Source of the DNA: an uncultured delta proteobacterium
Lineage (GTDB): Bacteria; Desulfobacterota; Syntrophobacteria; BM002
DNA: 64,000 nt
NCBI GenBank assembly: GCA_963712115.1
Contig: CAVQGX010000003.1
Span: 32,001 to 96,000, forward strand
Direction: 5' to 3'
A model generated the notes under the pieces. That model did no database searches and was not told the origin of the DNA. It worked only from the letters and a program-made list of their open reading frames with translations. Positions 1 to 32,009 of this stretch are shown here, piece after piece (position 1 is the stretch's first letter; each line of letters opens with the position of its first letter). The position numbers and the translations under genes were made by a program.

Positions 1-71
1 AGTACGATTTCCCAGACTCGCTCGCCCATATTCATGGCAAGCTGATAGACCTGAAGATCCTCTAGTTGCAT
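1..71 (-). CDS. Four helix bundle (23S rRNA-IVP/bAvd-like) protein, N-terminal part, truncated by window edge
   Basis: Not in ORF track. Minus strand from ATG at 71 reads MQLEDLQVYQLAMNMGERVWEIV, matching the 'EDL.VYQ.A' start of this family; purine-rich AAAGGGGG upstream. Confidence 0.75.
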   Translation of the reverse strand, partial: MQLEDLQVYQLAMNMGERVWEIV

Positions 72-147
72 AATGGTGCCCCCTTTCAGTTAACAACCTA
101 ATGACAGCGAAGCGTAGTGACGGCGAAGCGTAATGATTTAATGACAA

Positions 148-202
148 ATTGGTTGGTAGCTCTCGCGCAGCGCAGGCTGCTGCTCGAGAGCTACCAACCA
201 AT
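148..202. repeat. Perfect 18-bp inverted repeat overlapping the deacetylase stop codon
   Basis: ATTGGTTGGTAGCTCTCG (148-165) and CGAGAGCTACCAACCAAT (185-202), with an inner GCAGC/GCTGC mini-stem. Confidence 0.8.
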
Positions 203-889
203 CTCTACCCGATGAAAGCCTTCTGCCAGTTCGAAATCCTCTCCCTCCGCCATGTCTTTGCACCTTTTCTTGAGCCACTCTTCCAAATTTGCTGGGTTGG
301 GGAAGCCCGTTACCTGGCTTTCATGACACCGTAGAGCTGTTAGTTTGCGATCAAAGGTATCGGTAATATCTGATCGATGATTTATGTCCTCAGCCGCCCA
401 GAACCATATTTCTTCCACGTTGTGAGGCTCCAGACCTTCCTCCAACAAATCAGGATATGCCAAGTGATCCCTGGCATAGGGGAATACCGCATCCAGGGTA
501 ACCTGGCCGGCAATGCGATGGTCACGGTGCCAGAGATAACGACGGTAGGGATCGGAAGTCACAACAATCCTTGGCCGATACATCCTTATCACACGGACTA
601 TCTGTTTCCGGAACTCTGGGGTATCCTCCAGCTCCTGGTCGGGATACCCCAGGAACACTACCTCCCGGACCCCCAAAGTCTTGGCTGCCGCCTCTTGCTC
701 TCTTTGGCGGATCTTAGCCAAATCATCCGGTTTCAGGCTGCGATCGCTCGTACCCTTGTTGCCGTTGGTGCAAACTACGTAAACAACCTGTTTTCCTTCT
801 CTGGTCCACCGGGCTACTGTACCGGCAACACCAAATTCTGCATCATCCGGATGAGCTGTTATAACCAATACATCAACTGCTGTGGTCAC
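191..889 (-). CDS. PIG-L/LmbE family deacetylase (MshB/Mca/BshB-like)
   Basis: AHPDD metal motif, YVVCTNG, R..E...A...LG, H.DH, 'K..AL.CH.SQ'. GTG start at 889 preceded by GGAG (ORF track extends to 943). Confidence 0.9.
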   Translation of the reverse strand: MTTAVDVLVITAHPDDAEFGVAGTVARWTREGKQVVYVVCTNGNKGTSDRSLKPDDLAKIRQREQEAAAKTLGVREVVFLGYPDQELEDTPEFRKQIVRVIRMYRPRIVVTSDPYRRYLWHRDHRIAGQVTLDAVFPYARDHLAYPDLLEEGLEPHNVEEIWFWAAEDINHRSDITDTFDRKLTALRCHESQVTGFPNPANLEEWLKKRCKDMAEGEDFELAEGFHRVEIGW

Positions 890-899
890 AGTAAAACTC

Positions 900-2153
900 C
901 TAGAGCATCGAGACTTTTCCGCAACAGCAACTGTTAAAAACACCTTCTCTTAGCACTGCCGCGTATTGGTCAATCATGGCAGACGCCACATTTGCCCAAC
1001 TGAATCGAAGAACTGAGGCTCGAACCTCATGGGCCGACAACCCATTCGAACCCGAGACAAACTTTTCTATACCCTGTGCCAGCAAACGGGGCGAGCCATT
1101 GCTCACCACATGTCCTGTCATACCCTCTATGAGTATATTCTCCATCGCTCCAACTTTGGTTGCTACCACCGGCGTACCTGAAGCCAGGGCCTCCAGCGCT
1201 ACCAGCCCGAAGCTTTCATAGTAAGAAGGCACAACTAGCACGTCTGCGGCACTGTAGTAGGCCGGCAGGTTATCTTGCTCTATCCTACCAACAAAAGTGA
1301 CCTCCTCCTGAATGCCAAAATTTCGGGCTAGTTTTTGCAGGCCTTGAAACTCAGGTGTGTCATTGCCGTCGCCACCGACAATTACCAATCGTAACCGCTG
1401 ATGGTGCTGCAAATGGCACACGGCCTCCATCAACCTGTCTATTCCCTTTAAGGGGGCGAATCTACCTACAAACAAAACAATTGATTCATCTTGAGCAAAA
1501 CCTAGCTTCTGCCGAGCCTTCGCCCTGTTCCATGGGCGAAAAAGATCCAAGTTTACCCCACAGGGAACGACGCCGATCGTCTCAGGGGATGCCCCATAGT
1601 GTCGCATCAAGTGACCTCTCTCATTATCCGTAGCCACGAGCAGGCGGTCGCAGTTTCTAGCCAAATGCTTTTCAGTAGCCGTGCGAAGTTCGGGTTCTTT
1701 CTCCGACCCGACTGTACTGTTCTTTACCGCACTAATAGTATGAAACATGAAAACATGAGGAACTTCCCACCTTTCCTGGGCCCACTTCCCCACCCTGCCG
1801 GACAACCAGTAGTGACTGTGAACGAGATCATAGTGGAGAGACTCAAGGGTTCTAAATCTTTCCAGCTCCTTAAAAAACTCATCAAGATGACCATAAAGAG
1901 CCAATTTATTCATCTCACCGTTCTTTCCGGCTCTTAGATGAATAAGCCTGACGTTCTCGTACAATTGGGCTATTTGCTTTTGCCTGGAACCGTTCAGACG
2001 GGTATAAATGTCCACCATATGACCGCGCTTCCCAAGTTCCCGGGCAAGCTCCCGGACATAAACGCTCATGCCCCCCGTGTCTTTCGTTCCCAACTCGCCC
2101 ATGGGGCTTGAATGGACGCTTAGCATTGCGATCCTTAGCTTCTCTGCTTCCAC
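900..2153 (-). CDS. mshA: GT4 glycosyltransferase, MshA (D-inositol-3-phosphate glycosyltransferase)-like
   Basis: IAMLSVHSSP..LG..DTGGM.VYV, HSHYWLSG, PCGV, VGR..PLKG, PSYYESFGLVALEA. GTG start at 2153 after GGAGAGGTGG; the upstream ORF extension runs through repeat sequence. Confidence 0.8.
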   Translation of the reverse strand: MEAEKLRIAMLSVHSSPMGELGTKDTGGMSVYVRELARELGKRGHMVDIYTRLNGSRQKQIAQLYENVRLIHLRAGKNGEMNKLALYGHLDEFFKELERFRTLESLHYDLVHSHYWLSGRVGKWAQERWEVPHVFMFHTISAVKNSTVGSEKEPELRTATEKHLARNCDRLLVATDNERGHLMRHYGASPETIGVVPCGVNLDLFRPWNRAKARQKLGFAQDESIVLFVGRFAPLKGIDRLMEAVCHLQHHQRLRLVIVGGDGNDTPEFQGLQKLARNFGIQEEVTFVGRIEQDNLPAYYSAADVLVVPSYYESFGLVALEALASGTPVVATKVGAMENILIEGMTGHVVSNGSPRLLAQGIEKFVSGSNGLSAHEVRASVLRFSWANVASAMIDQYAAVLREGVFNSCCCGKVSML

Positions 2154-2236
2154 GTGAACCACCTCTCCAATTCCAACCAGCTTAAATAAGGAATTCTTTT
2201 TCGCTATGCGCTTGGCGCTATGCGCTATGCGATTCG

Positions 2237-3217
2237 TCACCCAAGTTTAACTTGACATCTGTACAAGGGAATAGGTTTACCACCTAAGCGATGTTTATAT
2301 TCTTCCGTGCCCTTTAGAAAATCGTACTTCTTCCTCCCTTTGATAATGCTGTCTTTAATGGTTAACACTTTACTTAGCAGACCTACGCTCAGCGAACTAA
2401 ATCTGCCGTCATAACCATTGTTGTAGAGATATATTGTAGAATTATAATCAAAGCACATCACCGCAGCCGCAGGTGTACCATCAAGTTCGAGAACAAAGAG
2501 TTTCAGAAGGTTTGTTTTCGCCATTGACTCTGCCAGTAAACGAAAATAAGTATTCATCTGACTGGTCATGAAGGCCGCCTTATCTGAGCGGCTTAATCCG
2601 AAGAGAGCTAAGAACGTCTCCATTTCATCCATCACCTCTTTGAAACCTTCCACCACCCGATAGTTGACCTCCCCGGCCTCTTTTAACCTCCTGAGTTTTC
2701 GTCTTACCTCATGCCTTTGCTTCCCGGTCAACTCGCCCAAGAATTTATCCCAGCTAGATGGCAGGTCCAATTCCAAAGTAAAGTCCTCCTGAGCACAAAA
2801 AATTTCGCAGCCCAGACTCTTAGCCACTGCAACAAGTTCGGTGAGCACCTTGGAGTCAGCTCGCACGGTGTTCAGGTCGAGGCTGCGGATACCTTGCTGC
2901 CGCAAGTGATTAATCATAGTTTCAAAAAACTCCCGTCCCCTCCCGGGGGCAACGATAAAATCTTGATAATCGCAAACATCCGGATCACCGATAAAGCGTG
3001 CCTCTTCTCCTTTAACCAGAAGGGGCGCAATACCAATTAGTTTTTCCTTGTCTCTGACGGCAGAGATGTAGGGGGAAGATTCGTTACTGAATACACTCCA
3101 CCACACCTTCAACCAGCTGGGCAGAACAAAAAGGCAATCCCATTCCAAAGGATGTTCACCATCCACCCAGAGGGAGTGCAAAGTTTCAAAGGTTTCTTGC
3201 GTAACGGTATATGCCAT
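2237..3217 (-). CDS. GNAT family protein, CelD/BcsL (Acetyltransf_6) type
   Basis: 'WL..WW', LIGIAPL, 'DY.DF', 'R...RRKLRRL', 'YDFLKG.E.YK..LG'. Confidence 0.85.
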   Translation of the reverse strand: MAYTVTQETFETLHSLWVDGEHPLEWDCLFVLPSWLKVWWSVFSNESSPYISAVRDKEKLIGIAPLLVKGEEARFIGDPDVCDYQDFIVAPGRGREFFETMINHLRQQGIRSLDLNTVRADSKVLTELVAVAKSLGCEIFCAQEDFTLELDLPSSWDKFLGELTGKQRHEVRRKLRRLKEAGEVNYRVVEGFKEVMDEMETFLALFGLSRSDKAAFMTSQMNTYFRLLAESMAKTNLLKLFVLELDGTPAAAVMCFDYNSTIYLYNNGYDGRFSSLSVGLLSKVLTIKDSIIKGRKKYDFLKGTEEYKHRLGGKPIPLYRCQVKLG

Positions 3218-3226
3218 CCGAATCAC

Positions 3227-3523
3227 AAATGCCTAAAGTGTCTAAAGAGTAAATGCCTAAAATGTTCTAAAATGCCTAAAGTGCCTAAGATTTCTAAAGT
3301 GTTTAGAGGTCGTTGAAATCGTTCAAGTCGTTCAAGCCGTTCAAATCGGTGCCTAGTCCCTGGTGCTTAGTGCCTAGTTCTCCCTGCTGTCATCTGTCCT
3401 CTACCGCTTACAACAAATGACAGCGAAGCGTATTGACCCAATGACGCCGTAGGCATATGACTAGTTCCTACCCTATGCTCTATGCCTTTTCAAATCCGCA
3501 ATCCGCAATCCGAAATCCGCAAT
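3227..3523. repeat. Intergenic mosaic of short tandem repeat modules
   Basis: Successive degenerate units AAATGCCTAAA, TCGTTCAAG, TGCCTAG, AATGAC, CTATGC, AATCCGC. 3251-3391 is the reverse complement of 26942-27082 with 3 mismatches. Confidence 0.85.
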
Positions 3524-4537
3524 CTACAATCTCACCGTTTTTCCGGTTCGTGCTGCCTCTGCCAAGCCGTCCAGAACGCGCATATTGCGCACACTCTCTT
3601 CCGGCGTTAGAGCCAATGCTTCCTTACCCAGTAGCGCATCAGCAAAATGTTCCACCATGAGTTGATACTCATCCGCACCCGGTGTTACGTGTTTCTGCCC
3701 TACCTCCTGATCTTTTCCCCTCACAGTAAAGGCCGCCTCCTTTTCCCAGGGGATAAAAGCATCGTGAGGCAGTTCGATGGCACCTTCACTACCTAAGACG
3801 GAATATGTCTGCTGCAGTGAGGTGATAAAACTAGCTTCAATAGTAGCAAGACCATTTTCAGCAAACCTCAGCGATCCCACCAGGTGCATATCGACGCCAC
3901 TTGGATGATATACAGCCTGTGCCTGCACTGCAGTCGGCTCCATGCCCATGAACCAGCGGGCCACACTTACGCTGTAGCAACCAACATCCAGCAGAGCGCC
4001 ACCGCCCATTTCTGCTTTTAACCGCGCATTGTTACCCTTTGCCAAAATTTCCTCGTCCATTCGATAACAAAAAGAAGATCTAACTAAGGCTACTGTGCCG
4101 ATTTTGCCAAGAGTCACCATATCTCTAATGAGCTGGTTGCGTGGATGGAAGCGATACATTATTCCTTCCATTAAAAGCAACTTGGCGCCCGCAGCTGCAT
4201 CTGCCATTTCTTGAGCCTCCCGACCGTTGCACGCCAGGGGTTTTTCGCACAACACGTGTTTGTTTGCCGCCAATGCCTTCAAAGTCCAAGTATGGTGCAG
4301 GTGATTGGGCAGCGGAATATATACCGCATCAATAACCGGATCAGCCAAGAGATCATCATAACGATCGTAGACCTGAGTGATGTTGTTGTCTGCCATCACC
4401 TGTCTGGCATTCTCTGGAGAGCGTGTGGCAAGTCCATGAACCGTGCCGTTTCTGGATTTCTGCATGGCAGGGATAACACACACCCGGGCAATCTCGGCAT
4501 TGCCCAAAACCCCCCATTTGATTCGCTCAGCCATCAA
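3524..4537 (-). CDS. Gfo/Idh/MocA family oxidoreductase
   Basis: WGVLG.A.IA, DAVYIPLPN.LH, HVLCEKP, GGALLDVGCY. Confidence 0.92.
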   Translation of the reverse strand: MMAERIKWGVLGNAEIARVCVIPAMQKSRNGTVHGLATRSPENARQVMADNNITQVYDRYDDLLADPVIDAVYIPLPNHLHHTWTLKALAANKHVLCEKPLACNGREAQEMADAAAGAKLLLMEGIMYRFHPRNQLIRDMVTLGKIGTVALVRSSFCYRMDEEILAKGNNARLKAEMGGGALLDVGCYSVSVARWFMGMEPTAVQAQAVYHPSGVDMHLVGSLRFAENGLATIEASFITSLQQTYSVLGSEGAIELPHDAFIPWEKEAAFTVRGKDQEVGQKHVTPGADEYQLMVEHFADALLGKEALALTPEESVRNMRVLDGLAEAARTGKTVRL

Positions 4538-6179
4538 GCACCTCTACCGTACCCCCCTTGGATGCTGATCTTGCGGCTGCCTCTAAAATCTCCACCACCC
4601 GAAGCGAATCTTCAAGTGGAGCTATTAATGGCTCTCCTGTCAACAGGTGATCAGCCAGGTTACGGTGAAAAAGATAATGCTCTCTTTTGGGAAGTGCCAG
4701 TTTTTGGGCAACTATCTGGCCGGTATGATGACGGCGGTGCAAAGTTAAATCCGGGACCATTTCGGTGGCAGGGATGTGGTGCTGGTGGAAGTAGAGCACA
4801 GGATCAATCTCGTAGGTGCTCACATCCCGCCAATGACCGACGATTGCGCCCTCTGTTCCCAGGAGATACCATTTTGGCTTGCCCACGGCGGCAATGTCGG
4901 AGTGAATAAACTCCGCTTCTTGTCCCCCGGCAAACCTTATTTGTATGCGTTCCTGGTCGGCATTGGTGACATCGTGCCAAACTCGGTTTTGCCGGGTGGA
5001 GATAACTGCCGAGACCTCGTGGGGGATCAAACTCACCAACCAATCCAGATAATGGGCGCCCCAATCATAAGCCGTGCCTCCTGAAATCGCATCGTGCGAA
5101 TGCCAGTAACCACAGGGATGGTTGAAGCCGCCAACAAAGGTCTCCAGATAAAAGAGTTCACCAATCAGACCTTCAGCCAGGGCTTGTCTGATCGCCAAGT
5201 AATCTACATCCCAACGCCGGTTTTGGTGGCAGCTGAGGTGTACCTGCTGTTTTTCAGCCATTTCCACCATAGCGGCTGTTTCTTTCCGATTGATTGCCAA
5301 GGGCTTTTCGCAGACCACGTGCTTGCCCGCCGCCATCATCTGCACAGACAGATTGGCATGAGTATTAGGCGGCGTGGCAACGATAACCAGATCAACCTCA
5401 GGGTCCGCCGCCAATGCTTCAGCAGAGTCATAGATCTTCACCTGGGGAAAGTCATGTTGCGCCTGTTCAAGCCTTTGCTGATCCAAATCACAAGCGGCGC
5501 CAAGACTCAAACCAGCCGTCGCCTCGATGCCCAGGCCGTGAGCCTTGCCTATAGATTGGGCGTAGCCCAAAAGCCCAACCCCTAGGGTGCGATGGCTGAA
5601 CGGTTGTCCAGCTAATTGGCTCAACAAGCGGTAGAGAATTTGTTGGAAAGCGGGATGGTCATAAGCTTGCAGTGTTGTGCAGGCAACCTGTCCGTCACCT
5701 GCAGGGCGATACACGAGTACTGGGCTGTGCTGGTATTGCCAGTCACCATAAAGGATTGTTTCTGTCTCTTCAGATGTCTTATTAAGAGCGCGGTAACACC
5801 CTTGCAGATAAATGGCATCGGCCAAACGTATTGCCAGGGGATGGTTGCTCTTCTTAAACAGAACCCGCAACTCGGCCTCAGGTCCCACTGGATTAGGCTG
5901 CGCCCCAAATATCTTTGGCAAATCCTCATCCGAGGGGCGGACCAGTCCTAACCATCCACCCCCCCGGTGAACAAACTTTGTCAGTTGCTCATCGTCCTTC
6001 GCAAAAGCTGCAGTGTTAGCAGTGGCAACAACATCATAGGGACTCAAATCGTTGGGCAATTGGGCTTCTGAGGTCAATTTGACGTGATGGATCGATCCCA
6101 AATACGACAACAAAGGCTGGAGAAATGAGTCGTGGTTATCCGCCACGAAGAGTATTCTTATAGGAGAATGGAGGATCAT
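4527..6179 (-). CDS. ThuA-like domain fused to Gfo/Idh/MocA dehydrogenase (inositol dehydrogenase-like)
   Basis: N-terminal ~190 aa with 'FV..GGG.LGL', 'HPL', 'PV...R..G.G.V'; C-terminal VGLLGY, ATPPNTH, HVVCEKP, QNRRWD, GG..YDWGAHYLD. Confidence 0.85.
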   Translation of the reverse strand: MILHSPIRILFVADNHDSFLQPLLSYLGSIHHVKLTSEAQLPNDLSPYDVVATANTAAFAKDDEQLTKFVHRGGGWLGLVRPSDEDLPKIFGAQPNPVGPEAELRVLFKKSNHPLAIRLADAIYLQGCYRALNKTSEETETILYGDWQYQHSPVLVYRPAGDGQVACTTLQAYDHPAFQQILYRLLSQLAGQPFSHRTLGVGLLGYAQSIGKAHGLGIEATAGLSLGAACDLDQQRLEQAQHDFPQVKIYDSAEALAADPEVDLVIVATPPNTHANLSVQMMAAGKHVVCEKPLAINRKETAAMVEMAEKQQVHLSCHQNRRWDVDYLAIRQALAEGLIGELFYLETFVGGFNHPCGYWHSHDAISGGTAYDWGAHYLDWLVSLIPHEVSAVISTRQNRVWHDVTNADQERIQIRFAGGQEAEFIHSDIAAVGKPKWYLLGTEGAIVGHWRDVSTYEIDPVLYFHQHHIPATEMVPDLTLHRRHHTGQIVAQKLALPKREHYLFHRNLADHLLTGEPLIAPLEDSLRVVEILEAAARSASKGGTVEVLDG

Positions 6180-6444
6180 TTGCCTTAGCCCTTATATCTG
6201 CAGTGTCTGGACTTCTCTAGGGTCTGTTATCCTTTGCTTGCGGGGTAATTGTGTCATGTGCTTCGCGTCATTTGGCTCCGCCGTCATTACGCTTTGCTGT
6301 CATTTGTTGTCACAAGGTCTTTAGGGTAAGTGAGCATCAATGACGCCGAAGGCTAACTGGGAACCCGCTTGCGGGCCTGAGCGGAGCGCAGCGAGCGCGA
6401 AGAAATGACTATAAATGACCTAATGACCATAAAGCGCCTGCGCT

Positions 6445-7698
6445 TTATGACTTGAGCCGCCAGCGGGGACCCTCTTCTGTATCTTCAATTATTACGTCCC
6501 CTCGCTCGAGGCTCTCCCTGATGGCATCGGCTTCTTCCCACTGTTTGTTGTCTCTGAATCTCTGGCGTAAGCTCAGAAGTTCACCCATGACCGGGGCCAG
6601 GCATTCAGCCTTGTCTTTTGGGGAAGTCTCGAGCTCCATCCCAAAGAGAACTATCAAATCTCGGAGTACTTCCCTTGCCTGGGAGATAAATTCCTCGTTT
6701 TCCAGCTCCTGTTTACCTTTCCATATGGCCCTGTCAAGCTCGAGAAGGGCATTTGTGGTTTTCTTTGAATCATGTTTCTCAAGACCTATACGAAACGTCT
6801 CTTCGATCCCATGAATTCTATCCCAGAAAGACTCTCCCTCCGAACCACGGGTGAGTTTGGCAGCTTCCGGCTGCGAAACTTTCTTTCTTATTCCTTCACC
6901 AACAGCTCCGCCGCGAAGAACCTCCAGAGAAAACCTATCTCCTTTCTCAAAGACGATTTCCTCTCCTCTCCGTCTCAGGCATACACTGCCGAGTCCCTTG
7001 ATCACAGCTTCCTCTTTTTCGAGATCTATAAGGCAAGCTGTGTGCTCGTCTAGACCAAAGACTGAGACATCCTCCGGCAGCATGGATTCCAGCTTGCTGA
7101 AGCGGGATTCACCCATAAAACAGAACCGGGTGTCATGAGTCCCACCTTCGGCATTGTTCCAATGGGGTATGACCACAAGATTGAAGCCGAAGTGCGCAAG
7201 GATATTTACCCCTTCTACCCAGTGCAGGTCCTGGCCCACTTTGTAAATCTCGTATACAGGGAGGGTGAAGCGCCCTACTGTCAAGGCCGCAGCACTGGCA
7301 GCCACCAGACAACCCCCTTCTTCCACCTGCCTGGTAATGATTTCCGGAATGGCTGTACCTTGCCACTGGAGAACAGCGTAAGTAGGGCTGCCCGGGCCAA
7401 TGAGAATGAAATTTGCCTGGCGCAACTTGTGAAAGGCCTGCTCTGCTTCAAATTCCGTACACCTCTCCTTCGATTTGAAAGAGGCTAAGAGCATTTGCTG
7501 CTGAACGTGCTTGCGAAAATATTCTGCAGCTCTTTCGGAAAGTTGATCCACATTGAGCTGAAACCCTGCCGGCGTGTCAAGAAATACGGCCTGAGGGGGC
7601 TGGGCCAGACTCCCCAGCAGTTCCTTGTGAACTTCAACCATAGTGGCCGTCAGTTCACCCGAACCCATCAGAGCAATAATGCCCTTTTTCGATAACAT
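6445..7698 (-). CDS. Peptidase S51/cyanophycinase-like domain fused to C-terminal CysRS anticodon-binding-like domain
   Basis: IALMGSGE, GPGSP, ASAAA (Ser), IPHWNN (His), GLDEHTA (Glu); C-terminus LLSLRQRFRDNKQWEEADAIRESL...IIEDTEEGPRW. ATG at 7698 with GAGGAAGG upstream. Confidence 0.8.
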   Translation of the reverse strand: MLSKKGIIALMGSGELTATMVEVHKELLGSLAQPPQAVFLDTPAGFQLNVDQLSERAAEYFRKHVQQQMLLASFKSKERCTEFEAEQAFHKLRQANFILIGPGSPTYAVLQWQGTAIPEIITRQVEEGGCLVAASAAALTVGRFTLPVYEIYKVGQDLHWVEGVNILAHFGFNLVVIPHWNNAEGGTHDTRFCFMGESRFSKLESMLPEDVSVFGLDEHTACLIDLEKEEAVIKGLGSVCLRRRGEEIVFEKGDRFSLEVLRGGAVGEGIRKKVSQPEAAKLTRGSEGESFWDRIHGIEETFRIGLEKHDSKKTTNALLELDRAIWKGKQELENEEFISQAREVLRDLIVLFGMELETSPKDKAECLAPVMGELLSLRQRFRDNKQWEEADAIRESLERGDVIIEDTEEGPRWRLKS

Positions 7699-7923
7699 AT
7701 CAGTAACCTTCCTCGGCACAAAAAACATTCGAGTACACCCAAAGTTCCTTAACCCGGATGTTTCATGAATCGCTTGCTGAGGGTCAAAAAGTAGGTTGCT
7801 TTGTAAGCTAAGACACGCTATGCGGGTTTGTCAATATTTCCAAAGCACGAGGAAGGACTCACTTCTCAAACACTTTGCATTCGAGATGCGATCTCTGCCC
7901 ATTGAGTCTTGCCAATCTCAAAT

Positions 7924-7939
7924 TGGCACATCCATTGCT
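7924..7939 (+). promoter_or_regulatory. sigma54 (-24/-12) promoter
   Basis: TGGCAC-ATCCA-TTGCT, consensus match about 70 bp upstream of ORF 8009. Confidence 0.7.
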
Positions 7940-8008
7940 TAAGAATATCCGACGAGATCTTTAAAAGCCAGTGGTCTTGATAATACATTGTTTTAACGGG
8001 AATTAGAA

Positions 8009-8224
8009 ATGACTTACATTTGCATCAAGTGTAGAAAAACGTGGGATAATGGAGGTCGTTCTAGTGAGTACTCCGGGGGATTGTGTGAGGATTGCACTTC
8101 GGAATACGTTCGAGAGAAGCAAAAAAACCAGGGATTTCACGATTGCTACAAGCGTGCGGTTGAAGTCTGTTCGAGAGACGAGTGTAGTTATTGGCAGTTA
8201 TGCAACAAAGAACTCCTAGGATAG
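8009..8224 (+). CDS. Small 8-Cys metal-binding protein
   Basis: CxxC...CxxC plus 'Q...G..DCY.RA...C....C..W..C' motif; sigma54 promoter upstream. Confidence 0.7.
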   Translation: MTYICIKCRKTWDNGGRSSEYSGGLCEDCTSEYVREKQKNQGFHDCYKRAVEVCSRDECSYWQLCNKELLG

Positions 8225-8272
8225 CCTGCGCTTTCTTCTCCCCGATTCTTAAGCCATGCCAATTTTTACACC

Positions 8273-9565
8273 CTACCTCCCCGTCTCTGTGAAATCGGAG
8301 TTGGAGGTCGCGATTAGGGAAGGATCGGGCAGGTGTAGAAGAACCACCTCGCCGCTTTCCCCCAGAGCCTTGAGCGGCTGGTCGTTTAGGTAGAGCTGAA
8401 GGCCAGCAGCGTTGCCGATGTGCAGCCTAAAGCCTGACATTGCCCTCCAAGTATGCTTTTCATCAGGTTTAAGCAGGTATTCGAGTTCTTGACTGTCATC
8501 TATAATCAGGTGAAGCCAGGTCCTCGCCAAGGTTTCGGCTCGTAGAACATAGACCGCCGGTGTCGAGGCTAGTCCAAAAACTTGCTGGTCTTCTTCAAGC
8601 CAAGGAGAGACGCTTTTTTCCGAAGAGGCTGAAGCTTCAACCCTGGGGGAGTAAGGCTGAGGGGTATGACCATTGAGTTCTCCTAGCTCTCCTGCCTTCG
8701 GTGTTATTGCGGCTTGGAGCTGCTTAGATGGCTCTTGGACCACCCTGGCGGATTGTTCTCGCAGTAGCTTGGAATCCAAGACAGTCTGAGAGGTGGCCTG
8801 GACTGTTCCAGACCCATAGACCTGCCCCTCGGTGACAGGTGACGGGGGCTGCGTCGGGGAACGGTTAGACCACCACACTGAGAGAATCAGAACTCCCAAT
8901 AAGGAGAGGATGCCCAATGGCACCATCTTTTTTCTCCCAGAACCCTCACGCCGCAGACCTTGGTTACCTAATAATTCTTTCCAAGAAGGCCTCTTAAGAG
9001 GCTTTAACTCCTCTTCAACTGCACACAGTCTGGCTTGAGTCTCTTCTCTTTTGTGATCACTAACGTCCGCTGCCTTGTCGAAATTCAACAGCCTTTTTTT
9101 CTGCTCTTTCTCCAGTTCCCTAAGTTTGCTCTTGGTCTCCGCCAGTTCACCGGTTTGGGTCTGTAAATTTTGCCTCAAGTCATCGAGCTCAGATTTCAAC
9201 CTCTCCAATTCCTTATGCTTCGCTTCTAGTGCTGCTGGAGGTAGACCCTGACGCTTTTTTTCAAACTGTCCGAAATGGGTCAAAGGCTCCTTGGGCCGGT
9301 CCCTCTCTGTTGAACCAGCAGCCCCCCTTTTGCGCTCACCAAGACTCCTTACCTCATCCATGTCGACGTAGATGCGGCCGTCCTCCTTTAGCCGCGTGAG
9401 CAGTCTTTTATTCAAATAGTTAATTATCGTGCCTTTGGAGACTCCAAGGGCCCTAGCCGCCACCTGGATAGTGACTCTTTCCTTCACCACAGAAGGTTCC
9501 GGGGCTGAGAGGAAAAAATGAGATACTCTCTCTAACCCTCTCTCCTGGTTTTTCCTAGCCTTCAT
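8273..9565 (-). CDS. HTH + coiled-coil + TM + DUF4115 (RodZ C-terminal-like) protein
   Basis: HTH 'TIQVAARALGVSKGTIINYL'; heptad-rich region; TM MVPLGILSLLGVLILSVWW; C-terminal 'TWL.L.ID...L.P....W.A...F.L.IGNAAGL.L.LN...LG..GEV'. Confidence 0.8.
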   Translation of the reverse strand: MKARKNQERGLERVSHFFLSAPEPSVVKERVTIQVAARALGVSKGTIINYLNKRLLTRLKEDGRIYVDMDEVRSLGERKRGAAGSTERDRPKEPLTHFGQFEKKRQGLPPAALEAKHKELERLKSELDDLRQNLQTQTGELAETKSKLRELEKEQKKRLLNFDKAADVSDHKREETQARLCAVEEELKPLKRPSWKELLGNQGLRREGSGRKKMVPLGILSLLGVLILSVWWSNRSPTQPPSPVTEGQVYGSGTVQATSQTVLDSKLLREQSARVVQEPSKQLQAAITPKAGELGELNGHTPQPYSPRVEASASSEKSVSPWLEEDQQVFGLASTPAVYVLRAETLARTWLHLIIDDSQELEYLLKPDEKHTWRAMSGFRLHIGNAAGLQLYLNDQPLKALGESGEVVLLHLPDPSLIATSNSDFTETGR

Positions 9566-9582
9566 AAAAGATCCAAGGTAGA

Positions 9583-10662
9583 TTACAGGCTGATGAGCGA
9601 ATTTACCCCGCCGTAAGCATCTTCAACTGTGCTGTCGTTGGCAGGATCAGCTATCCAGCGGCCATCAACCAGGTACTTATACTCATAGGATCCAGGCCTG
9701 AGGGAAATAGTCTTGTGCCAGAGCGGTCTACCCTGGGACTCGGTGAAATCCAACGATTCCGGCACCCACTCATTAAAATCTCCTGCGATCTGCACTACCG
9801 CGCCCTCAGGCGCTTCCACCCTGAACAATATTTCCCTTTCTGGTTGTAACTTCAGCCGTCCCTCAGCTGCCAAAAACGACTCCAGAGTAAAACCCCTGGC
9901 CAGCATTTCAGGCTCCTCATCCAGAATCTCCCTGGTTAAACTTCGATAATCGCGGAAGCCAGCACAGTGCTTGTCGAATTCGGCTATGGCCTTTCCCTCC
10001 CTTGCAGCTTCTCTCAATCTGGTGCAGGTCTTGATCATGGTGTCGAAACAGTTTTCGGGAAATCTAGCCCTAAGATCCTCTACTAGACTCCTGCAGAAAT
10101 TGGTCCTGAGGTCGACGTTGGTGGCTAAAATCTTGATGTTGAGCTGATGTCGGACCCTCTCTTCGATAATCCGGATAGTATCTAGAAGCTTTCCGAGACC
10201 GTGAATAGAGAAAAAACTGGAGTCCACGGGAATGATCACCTCCTCAGCTGCCACCAGTCCATTAAAGGTCAAAAGACCCACGCTGGGAGGACTGTCAATG
10301 ATGAGGTAGTCGTAATTTTTTTCAACCTCCACAAGGCTCTGGGTGAGTTTGTATTCCCGCTCGCTGGCACCTGCCATGACCTGCTCAAAGGCACTCAATA
10401 CCACATCACTCAGAACAGCGTCGAGATTCTCTTTCAATGTCTGGGTGGCTTCGCTAATCGGTATTTTGCCTAGCAGGACCTCATAGATAGTCTTCTCTGC
10501 ATGGTCAACCTCTGCCCCAAGTCCAAGCCCTGCATGCCCTTGCGGATCCAGATCAATCAAGAGCACCTTCTTACCCTCACCTGCCAAGAAGTGGGCTAGA
10601 TTTATTGCTGTTGTCGTTTTGCCGCAACCGCCCTTTTGATTGACAAGAGCAATTTTTCTCAT
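9583..10662 (-). CDS. parA: ParA/Soj family ATPase with C-terminal glycogen-binding CBM48 (AMPK1_CBM-like) domain
   Basis: NQKGGCGKTTT, DLDPQG, IIDSPP; C-terminal 'VQIAGDFNEW...L.PG.YEYKYLVDG.W..DP.N'. Strong RBS before ATG 10662; alternative in-frame ATG at 10806. Confidence 0.9.
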   Translation of the reverse strand: MRKIALVNQKGGCGKTTTAINLAHFLAGEGKKVLLIDLDPQGHAGLGLGAEVDHAEKTIYEVLLGKIPISEATQTLKENLDAVLSDVVLSAFEQVMAGASEREYKLTQSLVEVEKNYDYLIIDSPPSVGLLTFNGLVAAEEVIIPVDSSFFSIHGLGKLLDTIRIIEERVRHQLNIKILATNVDLRTNFCRSLVEDLRARFPENCFDTMIKTCTRLREAAREGKAIAEFDKHCAGFRDYRSLTREILDEEPEMLARGFTLESFLAAEGRLKLQPEREILFRVEAPEGAVVQIAGDFNEWVPESLDFTESQGRPLWHKTISLRPGSYEYKYLVDGRWIADPANDSTVEDAYGGVNSLISL

Positions 10663-11436
10663 GGCTCTCCCTCCTTCCTTTCTTAAGGCAGGGAAAGAAG
10701 AGCGACTTCTCTCCCTGGTTGATTTCCCATCGAAGTCATCTAACTTCTTGAACCTATGAAATAGTCCGCTTAACAGGGCTCCAACCTTTCGAAGTAGAGA
10801 TCTCATGGTCGATATTCTCCTTGCCGGATTAATAAGGGATGTTTCTGGCTGGAAAGCTGTATTAAGTAATCTGGGGTAGTAGAAGAAAAGCTTGCTAAAT
10901 CGTGGATAAATGAAACGGCTACACCATTTGCAGACAAGGAAATTTTTGTCCACTTACGGTGCCGGTAGAGCCCGGTTCTTTCCCTTGATTGGGGAAGAGA
11001 CATGTCAATGCCAAGGCGATTCGGTGGTTTCTGTTCAATAACCAGCTCAAACATTAATGAGCCGGATAGCCTTGTCACAATCGATACATATTGTGATGAA
11101 TTATCATCAGCCTCCTGTATCCTTTAACCACCTGCTGCGACTTAAACCACAATAAATTAGACATGTCAAGTAAATAGAGGGCAAGTTTGTTTAAATAAAT
11201 GGTTTTTTTCTTTAGAAAAAAGAGAGTTTTCCGCTTCAAATTAATCTTCATCCCAGAATCTACCTTGTTCAATAGCTGAGATTTTTAGTCAATAGATTGG
11301 CACTTTCCCGTGAGATCAAACAAATCAAGAGATTGGCCAAAACGGCACTTACTTGCGATGCAAAAGAAATTCCGCAGTTTGACACAGAGATTTCGCAAAA
11401 GGCTTACTTGTGGTGGAAAGTAGTTGAATTACACCT

Positions 11437-31733: not shown

Positions 31734-32009
31734 TTGCACTTTTTTGAACTGCGAGATATCCAGCATTTCGTGCTCTATTTTTTCCCGGCCTTTATTTTCA
31801 TCCTTCTCTTTGGTGCGGCTCTCGCCTTTACCATCTTTTACAGGAAGGATGCGGAAGAGAGAAAAAAGAGGGTAATCGAAACCTACTTGGGAGAAATAGA
31901 GGAGAGGAATGCACCCTTTCCCCTCATAGCATTCCTCACTATATTAGGAACCGTTTTGTGGCTCTTCTTCTACATACTTTTTACTGGTGTATTGGGGGTA
32001 AAAATATAG
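31734..32009 (+). CDS. Small two-TM protein of oxidase operon
   Basis: TTG start with GGAGG; 'IEERNAP.P' resembles the CcoP N-terminal motif. Confidence 0.65.
   Translation: MHFFELRDIQHFVLYFFPAFIFILLFGAALAFTIFYRKDAEERKKRVIETYLGEIEERNAPFPLIAFLTILGTVLWLFFYILFTGVLGVKI

Follow-up and report, generated by a model that had tools for sequence, protein, structure and literature searches.

A six-gene operon of an uncultured Desulfobacterota bacterium as a candidate tRNA-dependent pathway to a mycothiol-like compound

The window analysed here comprises 64,000 nucleotides (nt) from an uncultured delta proteobacterium (Desulfobacterota; Syntrophobacteria; BM002), positions 32,001 to 96,000 of contig CAVQGX010000003.1 in GenBank assembly GCA_963712115.1. 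Near its start, it carries an operon of six minus-strand genes (191-7698), which we call A to F in their order of transcription. We propose that a glucosaminyl-(inositol) glycoside is assembled by E and F, that D aminoacylates it from an aminoacyl-tRNA, and that A gives specificity for tRNA-Cys or handles the cysteinyl ester. Judging from sequence similarity and predicted structures, we give this reading a probability of roughly 0.45; its narrower core, in which tRNA-dependent chemistry lets E, F and D produce a glucosaminide with an N-aminoacyl group, we regard as probable. The product, we infer, would most likely be a low-molecular-weight thiol of the cysteinyl-glucosaminyl-inositol type, with aminoacyl-tRNA chemistry in place of the ATP-dependent ligases MshC and BshC. 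Every substrate, the identity of the amino acid and the exact role of A are read from homology.

An earlier interpretation made from the letters of this DNA only (the sequence-only reading) had described a mycothiol-like operon without MshC. Its six co-oriented genes and their domains were all recovered on the minus strand, with Pfam and NCBIfam in agreement bar the GNAT, D. The features are listed below, with protein lengths in amino acids (aa).

Gene A, 6445-7698, minus strand, 417 aa: fusion of an S51 fold with the anticodon-binding region of cysteinyl-tRNA synthetase (CysRS)
Gene B, 4527-6179, minus strand, 550 aa: ThuA-like N-terminal domain (marginal) and Gfo/Idh/MocA oxidoreductase; putative accessory tailoring enzyme
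Gene C, 3524-4537, minus strand, 337 aa: Gfo/Idh/MocA oxidoreductase
Gene D, 2237-3226, minus strand, 329 aa: double-GNAT Fem-type transferase; candidate aminoacyl-tRNA-dependent N-aminoacyltransferase
Gene E, 900-2240, minus strand, 446 aa: MshA-like retaining glycosyltransferase of family GT4
Gene F, 191-943, minus strand, 250 aa, start uncertain: PIG-L/LmbE-family de-N-acetylase
Palindrome, 148-202, no strand: inverted repeat with 24-nt arms, 96% complementary, just past the stop of F and between convergent genes

Protein D is a two-domain protein encoded by the only Acetyltransf_6 gene in the genome (E 2e-30), and it also exceeds the Pfam cut-off for FemAB_like (PF04339; 28.6 bits against 27). 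Sequence searches with D against solved structures gave no meaningful match, and the fold search alone was informative. With the predicted model as query (pLDDT 94.4, pTM 0.90), the matches listed by Foldseek at ranks 1 to 19 were all aminoacyl-tRNA-dependent transferases, comprising FemX from Weissella and S. aureus, FemA, the synthase domains of MprF, and Sbb17/Sba18; the first acyl-CoA tandem GNAT came at rank 21. TM scores were 0.55-0.66 for the aminoacyl-tRNA-dependent enzymes (TMq up to 0.66, for FemX) against 0.38-0.51 for the acyl-CoA tandem GNATs. The structures of Sbb17/Sba18 bound to the amino sugar streptothrisamine, which were deposited as aminoacyl-tRNA-dependent peptide synthases, gave a TMt of 0.72. 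Because its fold is closest to these transferases, D is disfavoured as an MshD-type acetyltransferase, the role that the sequence-only reading had assigned to it, and becomes the candidate for acylating the amine, that is, for adding cysteine. The genome search likewise returned no MshD: the best match to TIGR03448 scored 20.6 bits (cut-off 163 bits) and lay outside the operon.

A basic helix, R171-L181, is invariant across 31 orthologues of D (R171, H172, E173, R175, R176, K177, R180, L181), and near the C-terminus Tyr310 is invariant and Lys311 near-invariant in the same set. According to a review, the Fem class is characterised by a double-GNAT fold, a basic tRNA-binding helix and tRNA-dependent acylation of amino sugars, and its catalytic lysine is Lys305 in FemX, with the pair Phe328/Lys329 in DhpH-C (PMC12945691). 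Lys311 of D would be the counterpart of FemX Lys305. D resembles the Fem-type amino-sugar transferases (Orf11/Sba18/Sbb17 of the streptothricin type, and FemX) in its double-GNAT fold and in the amino-sugar amine proposed as its acceptor, and its basic helix and aromatic-lysine dyad are putative counterparts of theirs. It differs from them in having no detectable sequence similarity to the solved members, in belonging to a primary-metabolism-like operon of anaerobes, and in having as its partner a protein with the anticodon module of a synthetase. We know of no precedent for a Fem enzyme with such a partner.

The partner in question is A. Its open reading frame (ORF) extends to position 7728, and the start is likely M11, given a length of about 417 aa in over 100 of the listed homologues. 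Pfam detected CysS_C (PF23493; 27.3 bits, cut-off 23) and, under its cut-off, Peptidase_S51 (20.5 bits, cut-off 23.9). In the AlphaFold model (pLDDT 79.6), the first ~260 residues match S51 peptidases by Foldseek (6nqc, TMt 0.81; PepE and cyanophycinase, E 1e-9 to 1e-13), and the tail matches the synthetase of the E. coli CysRS-tRNA complex (1u0b_B; probability 1.00 over 129 columns). Residues 284-417 also align with residues 343-494 of the CysRS of this genome (hhalign, 96% probability, 195 columns). This CysRS-like part consists of the helical bundle (DALR-2) and the C-terminal alpha/beta anticodon domain (CysS_C), as in the C-terminal region of CysRS. Unlike CysRS, A has no synthetase catalytic (Rossmann) core and possesses the S51 serine-hydrolase fold in its place, in agreement with the sequence-only reading, which had noted a cysteine-linked gene with a CysRS tRNA-binding domain and no ligase core.

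Long motifs of A are invariant in 30 orthologues (59-91% identity), among them ASAAAL, containing S135; PHWNNAEGG, containing H179; and GLDEHTA, containing E218. Ser135 is aligned opposite the SAGA serine of 6nqc, and His179 and Glu218 are, we assume from the motif pattern, the other members of the S51 triad. A therefore appears to be an active serine-hydrolase fold, its putative Ser-His-Glu triad intact, tethered to the part of CysRS that would read tRNA-Cys. A complex prediction for A and D scored 0.00, which counts neither for nor against binding.

E and F would provide the amino sugar. E matched TIGR03449, the model for MshA (D-inositol-3-phosphate glycosyltransferase), with 370.8 bits, under the equivalog cut-off of 462.5; the second-best family reached 131 bits, and BshA 116 bits. 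It gave 267 bits (E 2.6e-78) with the MshA of C. glutamicum (CgMshA; 3c48/3c4v), 220 bits with Tll1590, a sucrose-phosphate synthase from Thermosynechococcus, and 47 bits with PimA. In the alignment, the residues of E that face K78, Y110, T134 and R154 of CgMshA are likewise K, Y, T and R, and these CgMshA residues are those which we take to be the ligands of the phosphate of 1L-inositol-1-phosphate (1L-Ins-1-P); these four residues of MshA were reportedly described as phosphate-binding by Vetting and colleagues in 2008. Because E keeps all four phosphate-position residues, a phosphorylated acceptor is likely, and inositol phosphate is a plausible one. F belongs to PIG-L (PF02585; E 2.9e-36, 125 bits, cut-off 28.2), and its translation carries the AHPDD and HxxH motifs. 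Its scores against the more specific models were all under cut-off: 112.6 bits for BshB1 (cut-off 182.5), 89.5 for BshB2, 74 for Mca and 63.3 for MshB (cut-off 224). The MshA-like and MshB-like genes that had been named from the sequence are indeed present, the second being MshB/BshB-like.

The genome assembly has 4.9 Mb in 70 contigs and is 94.4% complete; the window lies on contig 3. The search for mshC and bshC proposed with the sequence-only reading was carried out on this assembly, and no MshC exceeded the family cut-off of 485 bits. The best matches to the MshC model were a canonical CysRS of 496 aa (314 bits) and an 804-aa CysK-CysRS-like fusion (144 bits), and the BshC model had no match. 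Three homologues of Ino1 (myo-inositol-1-phosphate synthase) are encoded in the genome. Glutamate-cysteine ligase of the E. coli type (GshA) was not found in it, and the glutathione (GSH)-synthetase ATP-grasp domain gave weak matches of 27-33 bits.

The 804-aa fusion, on contig C30 (L002:484-2898), contains a pyridoxal phosphate (PLP)-dependent PALP domain of the cysteine-synthase type, a CysRS-like catalytic domain, DALR_2 and CysS_C. Inspected by eye, it has other residues in place of the HIGH motif and of two zinc cysteines, and an adenylating ligase seems an unlikely role for it; it may be a cysteine or persulfide enzyme linked to tRNA-Cys. The same tail was found on frames of 771-827 aa in many relatives, including genomes without A.

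Compared with mycothiol synthesis (Ino1, MshA, MshA2, MshB, MshC, MshD), the system shares an MshA-like GT4 with the phosphate-position residues, a PIG-L deacetylase, Ino1 homologues, and a proposed logic of N-acetylglucosamine (GlcNAc) transfer, deacetylation and acylation of the freed amine. It differs in that E and F are under the equivalog cut-offs, the genome is without MshC and MshD, and the amine-acylating candidate has a Fem fold. Moreover, the operon adds the S51/CysRS-tail protein and two Gfo oxidoreductases, and the host is a member of the Desulfobacterota, not of the Actinomycetota. With bacillithiol synthesis (BshA, BshB, BshC), the operon has in common the pairing of GT4 and PIG-L, with F closer to BshB1 (112.6 bits) than to MshB (63.3), and, barring the action of an acetyltransferase, the cysteine amine of the proposed product would stay free. 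In contrast to that pathway, E scores 116 bits against BshA and 371 against MshA, and no BshC was found in the genome.

The proposed pathway would start from inositol-1-phosphate, supplied by one of the Ino1 homologues elsewhere in the genome. E would transfer GlcNAc from UDP-GlcNAc to this phosphorylated acceptor, a phosphatase outside the assignments of the six genes would take off the phosphate, and F would remove the N-acetyl group to leave a free 2-amine. D would transfer the aminoacyl group of an aminoacyl-tRNA to that amine, in the manner of Sbb17/Sba18 on streptothrisamine. A may bind tRNA-Cys via its CysRS anticodon-binding module and so confer cysteine specificity, and its S51 domain may hand over or proofread the aminoacyl ester, or may itself carry the cysteinyl group. 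B and C would be optional tailoring enzymes that might, for example, epimerise the cyclitol or sugar via a keto intermediate.

To follow the neighbourhood of A, we collected 411 A-relative loci from species-representative genomes, kept the best 80, and searched these by tblastn with the six proteins. Among them, 46 extend for 7 kb or more on the downstream side of A (long loci); a partner was counted at 80% coverage or more and partial matches were scored absent, which makes the counts conservative. The closest loci belong to Desulfobacterota metagenome-assembled genomes (MAGs) of the Syntrophobacteria/Desulfobacterales, and in most long loci all partners are on the same strand, downstream of A. 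The neighbourhood conservation that the sequence-only reading had asked about is evident: D and/or E stand beside A in 37 of the 46 long loci, and at least one partner in 41. Twelve have all of B, C, D, E and F, eight have D, E and F without B and C, seven have B, C, D and E, five have no partner, and 14 are mixed. When F is missing after E, an alpha/beta hydrolase is found instead (two loci checked).

The same coupling is seen at the level of genomes. In a sample of 106 class genomes with a completeness of 85% or more, which are related and so not independent of one another, A is present in 45, D in 42 and both in 41, with D alone in a single genome (G039). E was detected at E<=1e-90 in 34 genomes, 32 of which have A; in the two genera where E falls short of it, the gene after D still encodes a GT4, though a more divergent one (G029 and G031 examined). 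In one genus, A and D-E lie on separate contigs (G064, G065, G069) or about 190 kb apart on the same contig (G066), and both A and D are kept in all seven genomes of this genus. A possible gene fusion of A and D in G046, a 720-aa frame, proved to be an artefact of an upstream open frame.

B and C had been interpreted as two inositol-dehydrogenase-like enzymes, which is more than their annotation sustains. B combines ThuA, marginally under its cut-off (33.1 bits against 33.4), with GFO_IDH_MocA, and its closest solved relatives are uncharacterised oxidoreductases, DgpA and YvaA. C has GFO_IDH_MocA and scores 110-143 bits against glucose-fructose oxidoreductase, sugar 3-ketoreductase and 1,5-anhydrofructose reductase. 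By sequence, both are generic Gfo/Idh/MocA sugar or cyclitol oxidoreductases from which no single substrate can be read; the two are present together in 27 of the 46 long loci and missing in 19. The sequence-only reading is partly supported: in the presence of MshA-like and MshB/BshB-like genes, in the lack of MshC and BshC and in the conserved neighbourhood, but not with respect to an MshD-like GNAT and inositol-specific dehydrogenases; its idea of Cys-tRNA as donor gains support.

The genes of the operon are closely packed, with overlaps of 11 nt between the start of C and the stop of B, 4 nt between the start of E and the stop of D, and 44 nt between E and F; spacers of 265 nt (A-B) and 297 nt (C-D) separate the remainder. 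Each of the six genes is matched by contigs from metatranscriptome libraries (two studies, four runs) with 90-99% identity, DNA carry-over being possible, and single contigs span the F/E and C/B junctions. These contigs are assembled and derive from related strains, and they show neither a single transcript nor an expression level.

The A family reaches beyond the class. It comprises no fewer than 7,990 protein clusters (90% identity), and 571 representative clusters match at E<=1e-30; sediments and fresh water are the main sources. Atlas clusters of the family are commonest in Chloroflexota and Actinomycetota, and one is named from Ilumatobacteraceae/Acidimicrobiia MAGs. Using an Ilumatobacteraceae/Acidimicrobiia member (33-40% identical to A), we fetched 80 metagenome loci of 1.9-17 kb, hereafter the actinobacterial-type loci. 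Three of these, high-GC soil loci (L186, L190, L191), contain B, C, an MshA-like GT4 (354 bits, TIGR03449) and an NlpC/P60 gene upstream of A. From the content of these loci, the A-E and A-B-C links extend beyond the Desulfobacterota and the A-D link does not, at the level of adjacency.

In all five freshwater or marine actinobacterial-type loci inspected, an ORF of about 305 aa either borders on the start of the A homologue or extends into it. The only one scanned, L151:7084-8001, encodes an alpha/beta hydrolase, and ORFs of 294-310 aa are placed likewise in L116, L157, L171 and L177. A kinship of these hydrolases with those of the Desulfobacterota clusters was considered and set aside, the similarity being generic only. 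In the high-GC soil loci, a 485-aa protein heads the cluster of B, C and the MshA-like gene (L190:640-2097, with a counterpart in L186). The L190 protein matched no Pfam or NCBIfam family, and no relation to D was found when it was considered as a D relative.

Several observations weigh against the tRNA-dependent cysteine pathway proposed here. Cysteine as the amino acid is suggested by the CysRS-derived module of A and by that module alone, and CysS_C is also named after YqeB in NCBI annotation and by itself need not imply tRNA binding. The genome has one tRNA-Cys gene among the 42 tRNAs detected, with no dedicated isoacceptor. In D, the loop after the last GNAT strand reads R-x-x-S-x-S, which we take to be a degenerate echo of the acyl-CoA motif, and use of acyl-CoA is possible. 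E and F are under the equivalog cut-offs of MshA, MshB and BshB, so that another phosphorylated polyol or sugar could be the acceptor. Four long loci run directly from C to E without D, and four of the 45 A-bearing genomes have no D (G007, G015, G017, G049). Among the 80 actinobacterial-type loci, no homologue of D or F was found by tblastn at E<=1e-6; B and C are close by in nine, and E is present in three.

These exceptions bear on a different division of labour, in which E and F would work as above but A would itself be the cysteinyl transferase: with tRNA-Cys docked, the cysteinyl group would pass onto Ser135 and then to the glucosamine amine, and D would be an acyl-CoA N-acyltransferase, an analogue of MshD capping the cysteine amine to give an N-acyl mycothiol-like thiol. 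We retain this alternative because the A-D link, as adjacency, does not extend to the actinobacterial-type loci. It would account for the clustering of A with B, C and an MshA-like GT4 without D in the distant lineage of L186, L190 and L191, and for the Desulfobacterota loci and genomes that miss D. The invariance of the putative triad of A speaks in the same direction, as do the tandem acyl-CoA GNATs found among the structural matches of D from rank 21, MshD being a tandem GNAT as well. However, the best 19 listed fold matches of D are aminoacyl-tRNA-dependent (TM 0.55-0.66 against 0.38-0.51), D lies above the FemAB_like cut-off and has a candidate for the basic helix typical of Fem enzymes, and no S51 enzyme is known to us as an aminoacyl transferase, although no search was aimed at one. 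On balance, we hold a transferase role for A to be decidedly unlikely.

A product that is not a thiol seems to us unlikely too, if a more serious prospect. E, F and D could make a glucosaminyl glycoside or glycolipid head-group, for instance a glycosylphosphatidylinositol (GPI)-like GlcN-inositol-lipid, loaded with another amino acid and used as an envelope modification or as a compatible solute; A would then act in editing or deacylation as a hydrolase related to tRNA-Cys, linked to the other genes by shared regulation and not by shared chemistry. The fold of D is equally like the lipid-aminoacylating domains of MprF, but the translations of the six proteins, checked by eye, have no obvious membrane segment. 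PIG-L and GT4 enzymes are, by the description of PF02585 and the logic of GPI synthesis, the first two enzymes of GPI-anchor synthesis, and both E and F fall under the thiol-pathway equivalog cut-offs; yet E scores 267 bits against MshA, an enzyme of soluble substrates, and 47 bits against PimA. The A clade of the Actinomycetota mostly has an alpha/beta hydrolase neighbour and no sugar genes. Against independent roles stands the tight co-occurrence of A and D (41 genomes with both, five with one), and for a CysRS-derived anticodon module beside a pair that generates a glucosamine amine, cysteine is the simplest fit. Chance or regulatory juxtaposition, with A an ordinary peptidase E or cyanophycinase-like exopeptidase and the others an unrelated sugar pathway, we consider highly improbable. 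Relatives of A are indeed named 'peptidase E', 'cyanophycinase-like exopeptidase', 'CysS/YqeB C-terminal domain-containing protein' or hypothetical in databases, and five of the 46 long loci have no partner. This explanation is countered by the synteny and phyletic coupling of A across several families of the class, and by its full CysRS anticodon-binding region, which occurs in no characterised S51 peptidase among the structural matches.

Downstream of F, the neighbours are plus-strand, convergent genes encoding an MBL-fold hydrolase, a HAD hydrolase and an ABC-2 transporter, and because of this orientation F is taken as the last gene of the operon. The palindrome between them looks like a bidirectional terminator and was not called by a consensus terminator scan. 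The HAD-family and MBL-fold hydrolase genes lie on the same contig at 29900-31615, just before the window (L109:9900-11615), and a HAD hydrolase also adjoins A in locus L035. The HAD hydrolase near F might be the phosphatase that the pathway needs for its sugar-phosphate step.

Upstream of A, at 8273-10953, are genes for a RodZ_C/HTH coiled-coil protein and for a ParA-type ATPase with a C-terminal glycogen-binding CBM48/AMPK1_CBM domain, which are retained at this place in the closest relatives only. An ORF of about 800 aa often found upstream of A was considered as a CysK-CysRS-like fusion and ruled out; in L048 it is a divergent gene of the penicillin amidase family (L048:7370-9796, Pfam, L048 only), and ORFs of 808-850 aa occupy this position in L030, L072 and L080. 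Rfam, promoter and terminator scans of positions 1-8600 returned nothing relevant, no tRNA gene lies within the window, and a search for small ORFs in both operon spacers gave nothing persuasive.

A short dispersed repeat occurs in all three non-coding stretches of the operon (96-137, 3410-3445, 6283-6310, 6418-6436), and its 15-base core has 297 occurrences with at most two mismatches on 53 of the 70 contigs. RNA-library contigs heap up on both spacers, and some contigs from related strains skip 3215-3508 and 6179-6449. Because these strains skip the spacers and the repeat lies inside them, the spacers look like insertions of repetitive extragenic palindromic (REP)-like elements. The C-D spacer (3233-3531) consists mostly of 7-nt and 9-nt tandem repeats in four arrays of 4 to 8 copies each.

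Our literature search, with subscription journals mostly outside its reach, found no report of MshA-like clusters in Desulfobacterota, of an S51/CysRS-tail protein, or of a tRNA-dependent mycothiol-like route, and PMC2922099 and PMC8762117, searched by terms, do not describe the system. We tentatively suggest, as a wider possibility that we would not yet favour, that a new cysteinyl-glucosaminyl-cyclitol redox buffer is made by many Desulfobacterota that live as anaerobes, perhaps also by Chloroflexota and by some Actinomycetota, with cysteine taken directly from Cys-tRNA-Cys by a new two-protein module of a Fem-fold transferase and a serine-hydrolase/CysRS anticodon-reader fusion. To our knowledge, and as far as the same search went, the major low-molecular-weight thiol of sulfate-reducer-type bacteria is not settled, and the operon is a concrete, testable candidate pathway for it. 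If the proposal is true, it would be a tRNA-dependent replacement for MshC and BshC, with the first anticodon-reading adaptor to steer a Fem-type enzyme, and it would represent both a new use of aminoacyl-tRNA in primary metabolism and a new route to tRNA specificity in Fem-type enzymes. It would also explain mycothiol-like or bacillithiol-like thiols in lineages without MshC or BshC.

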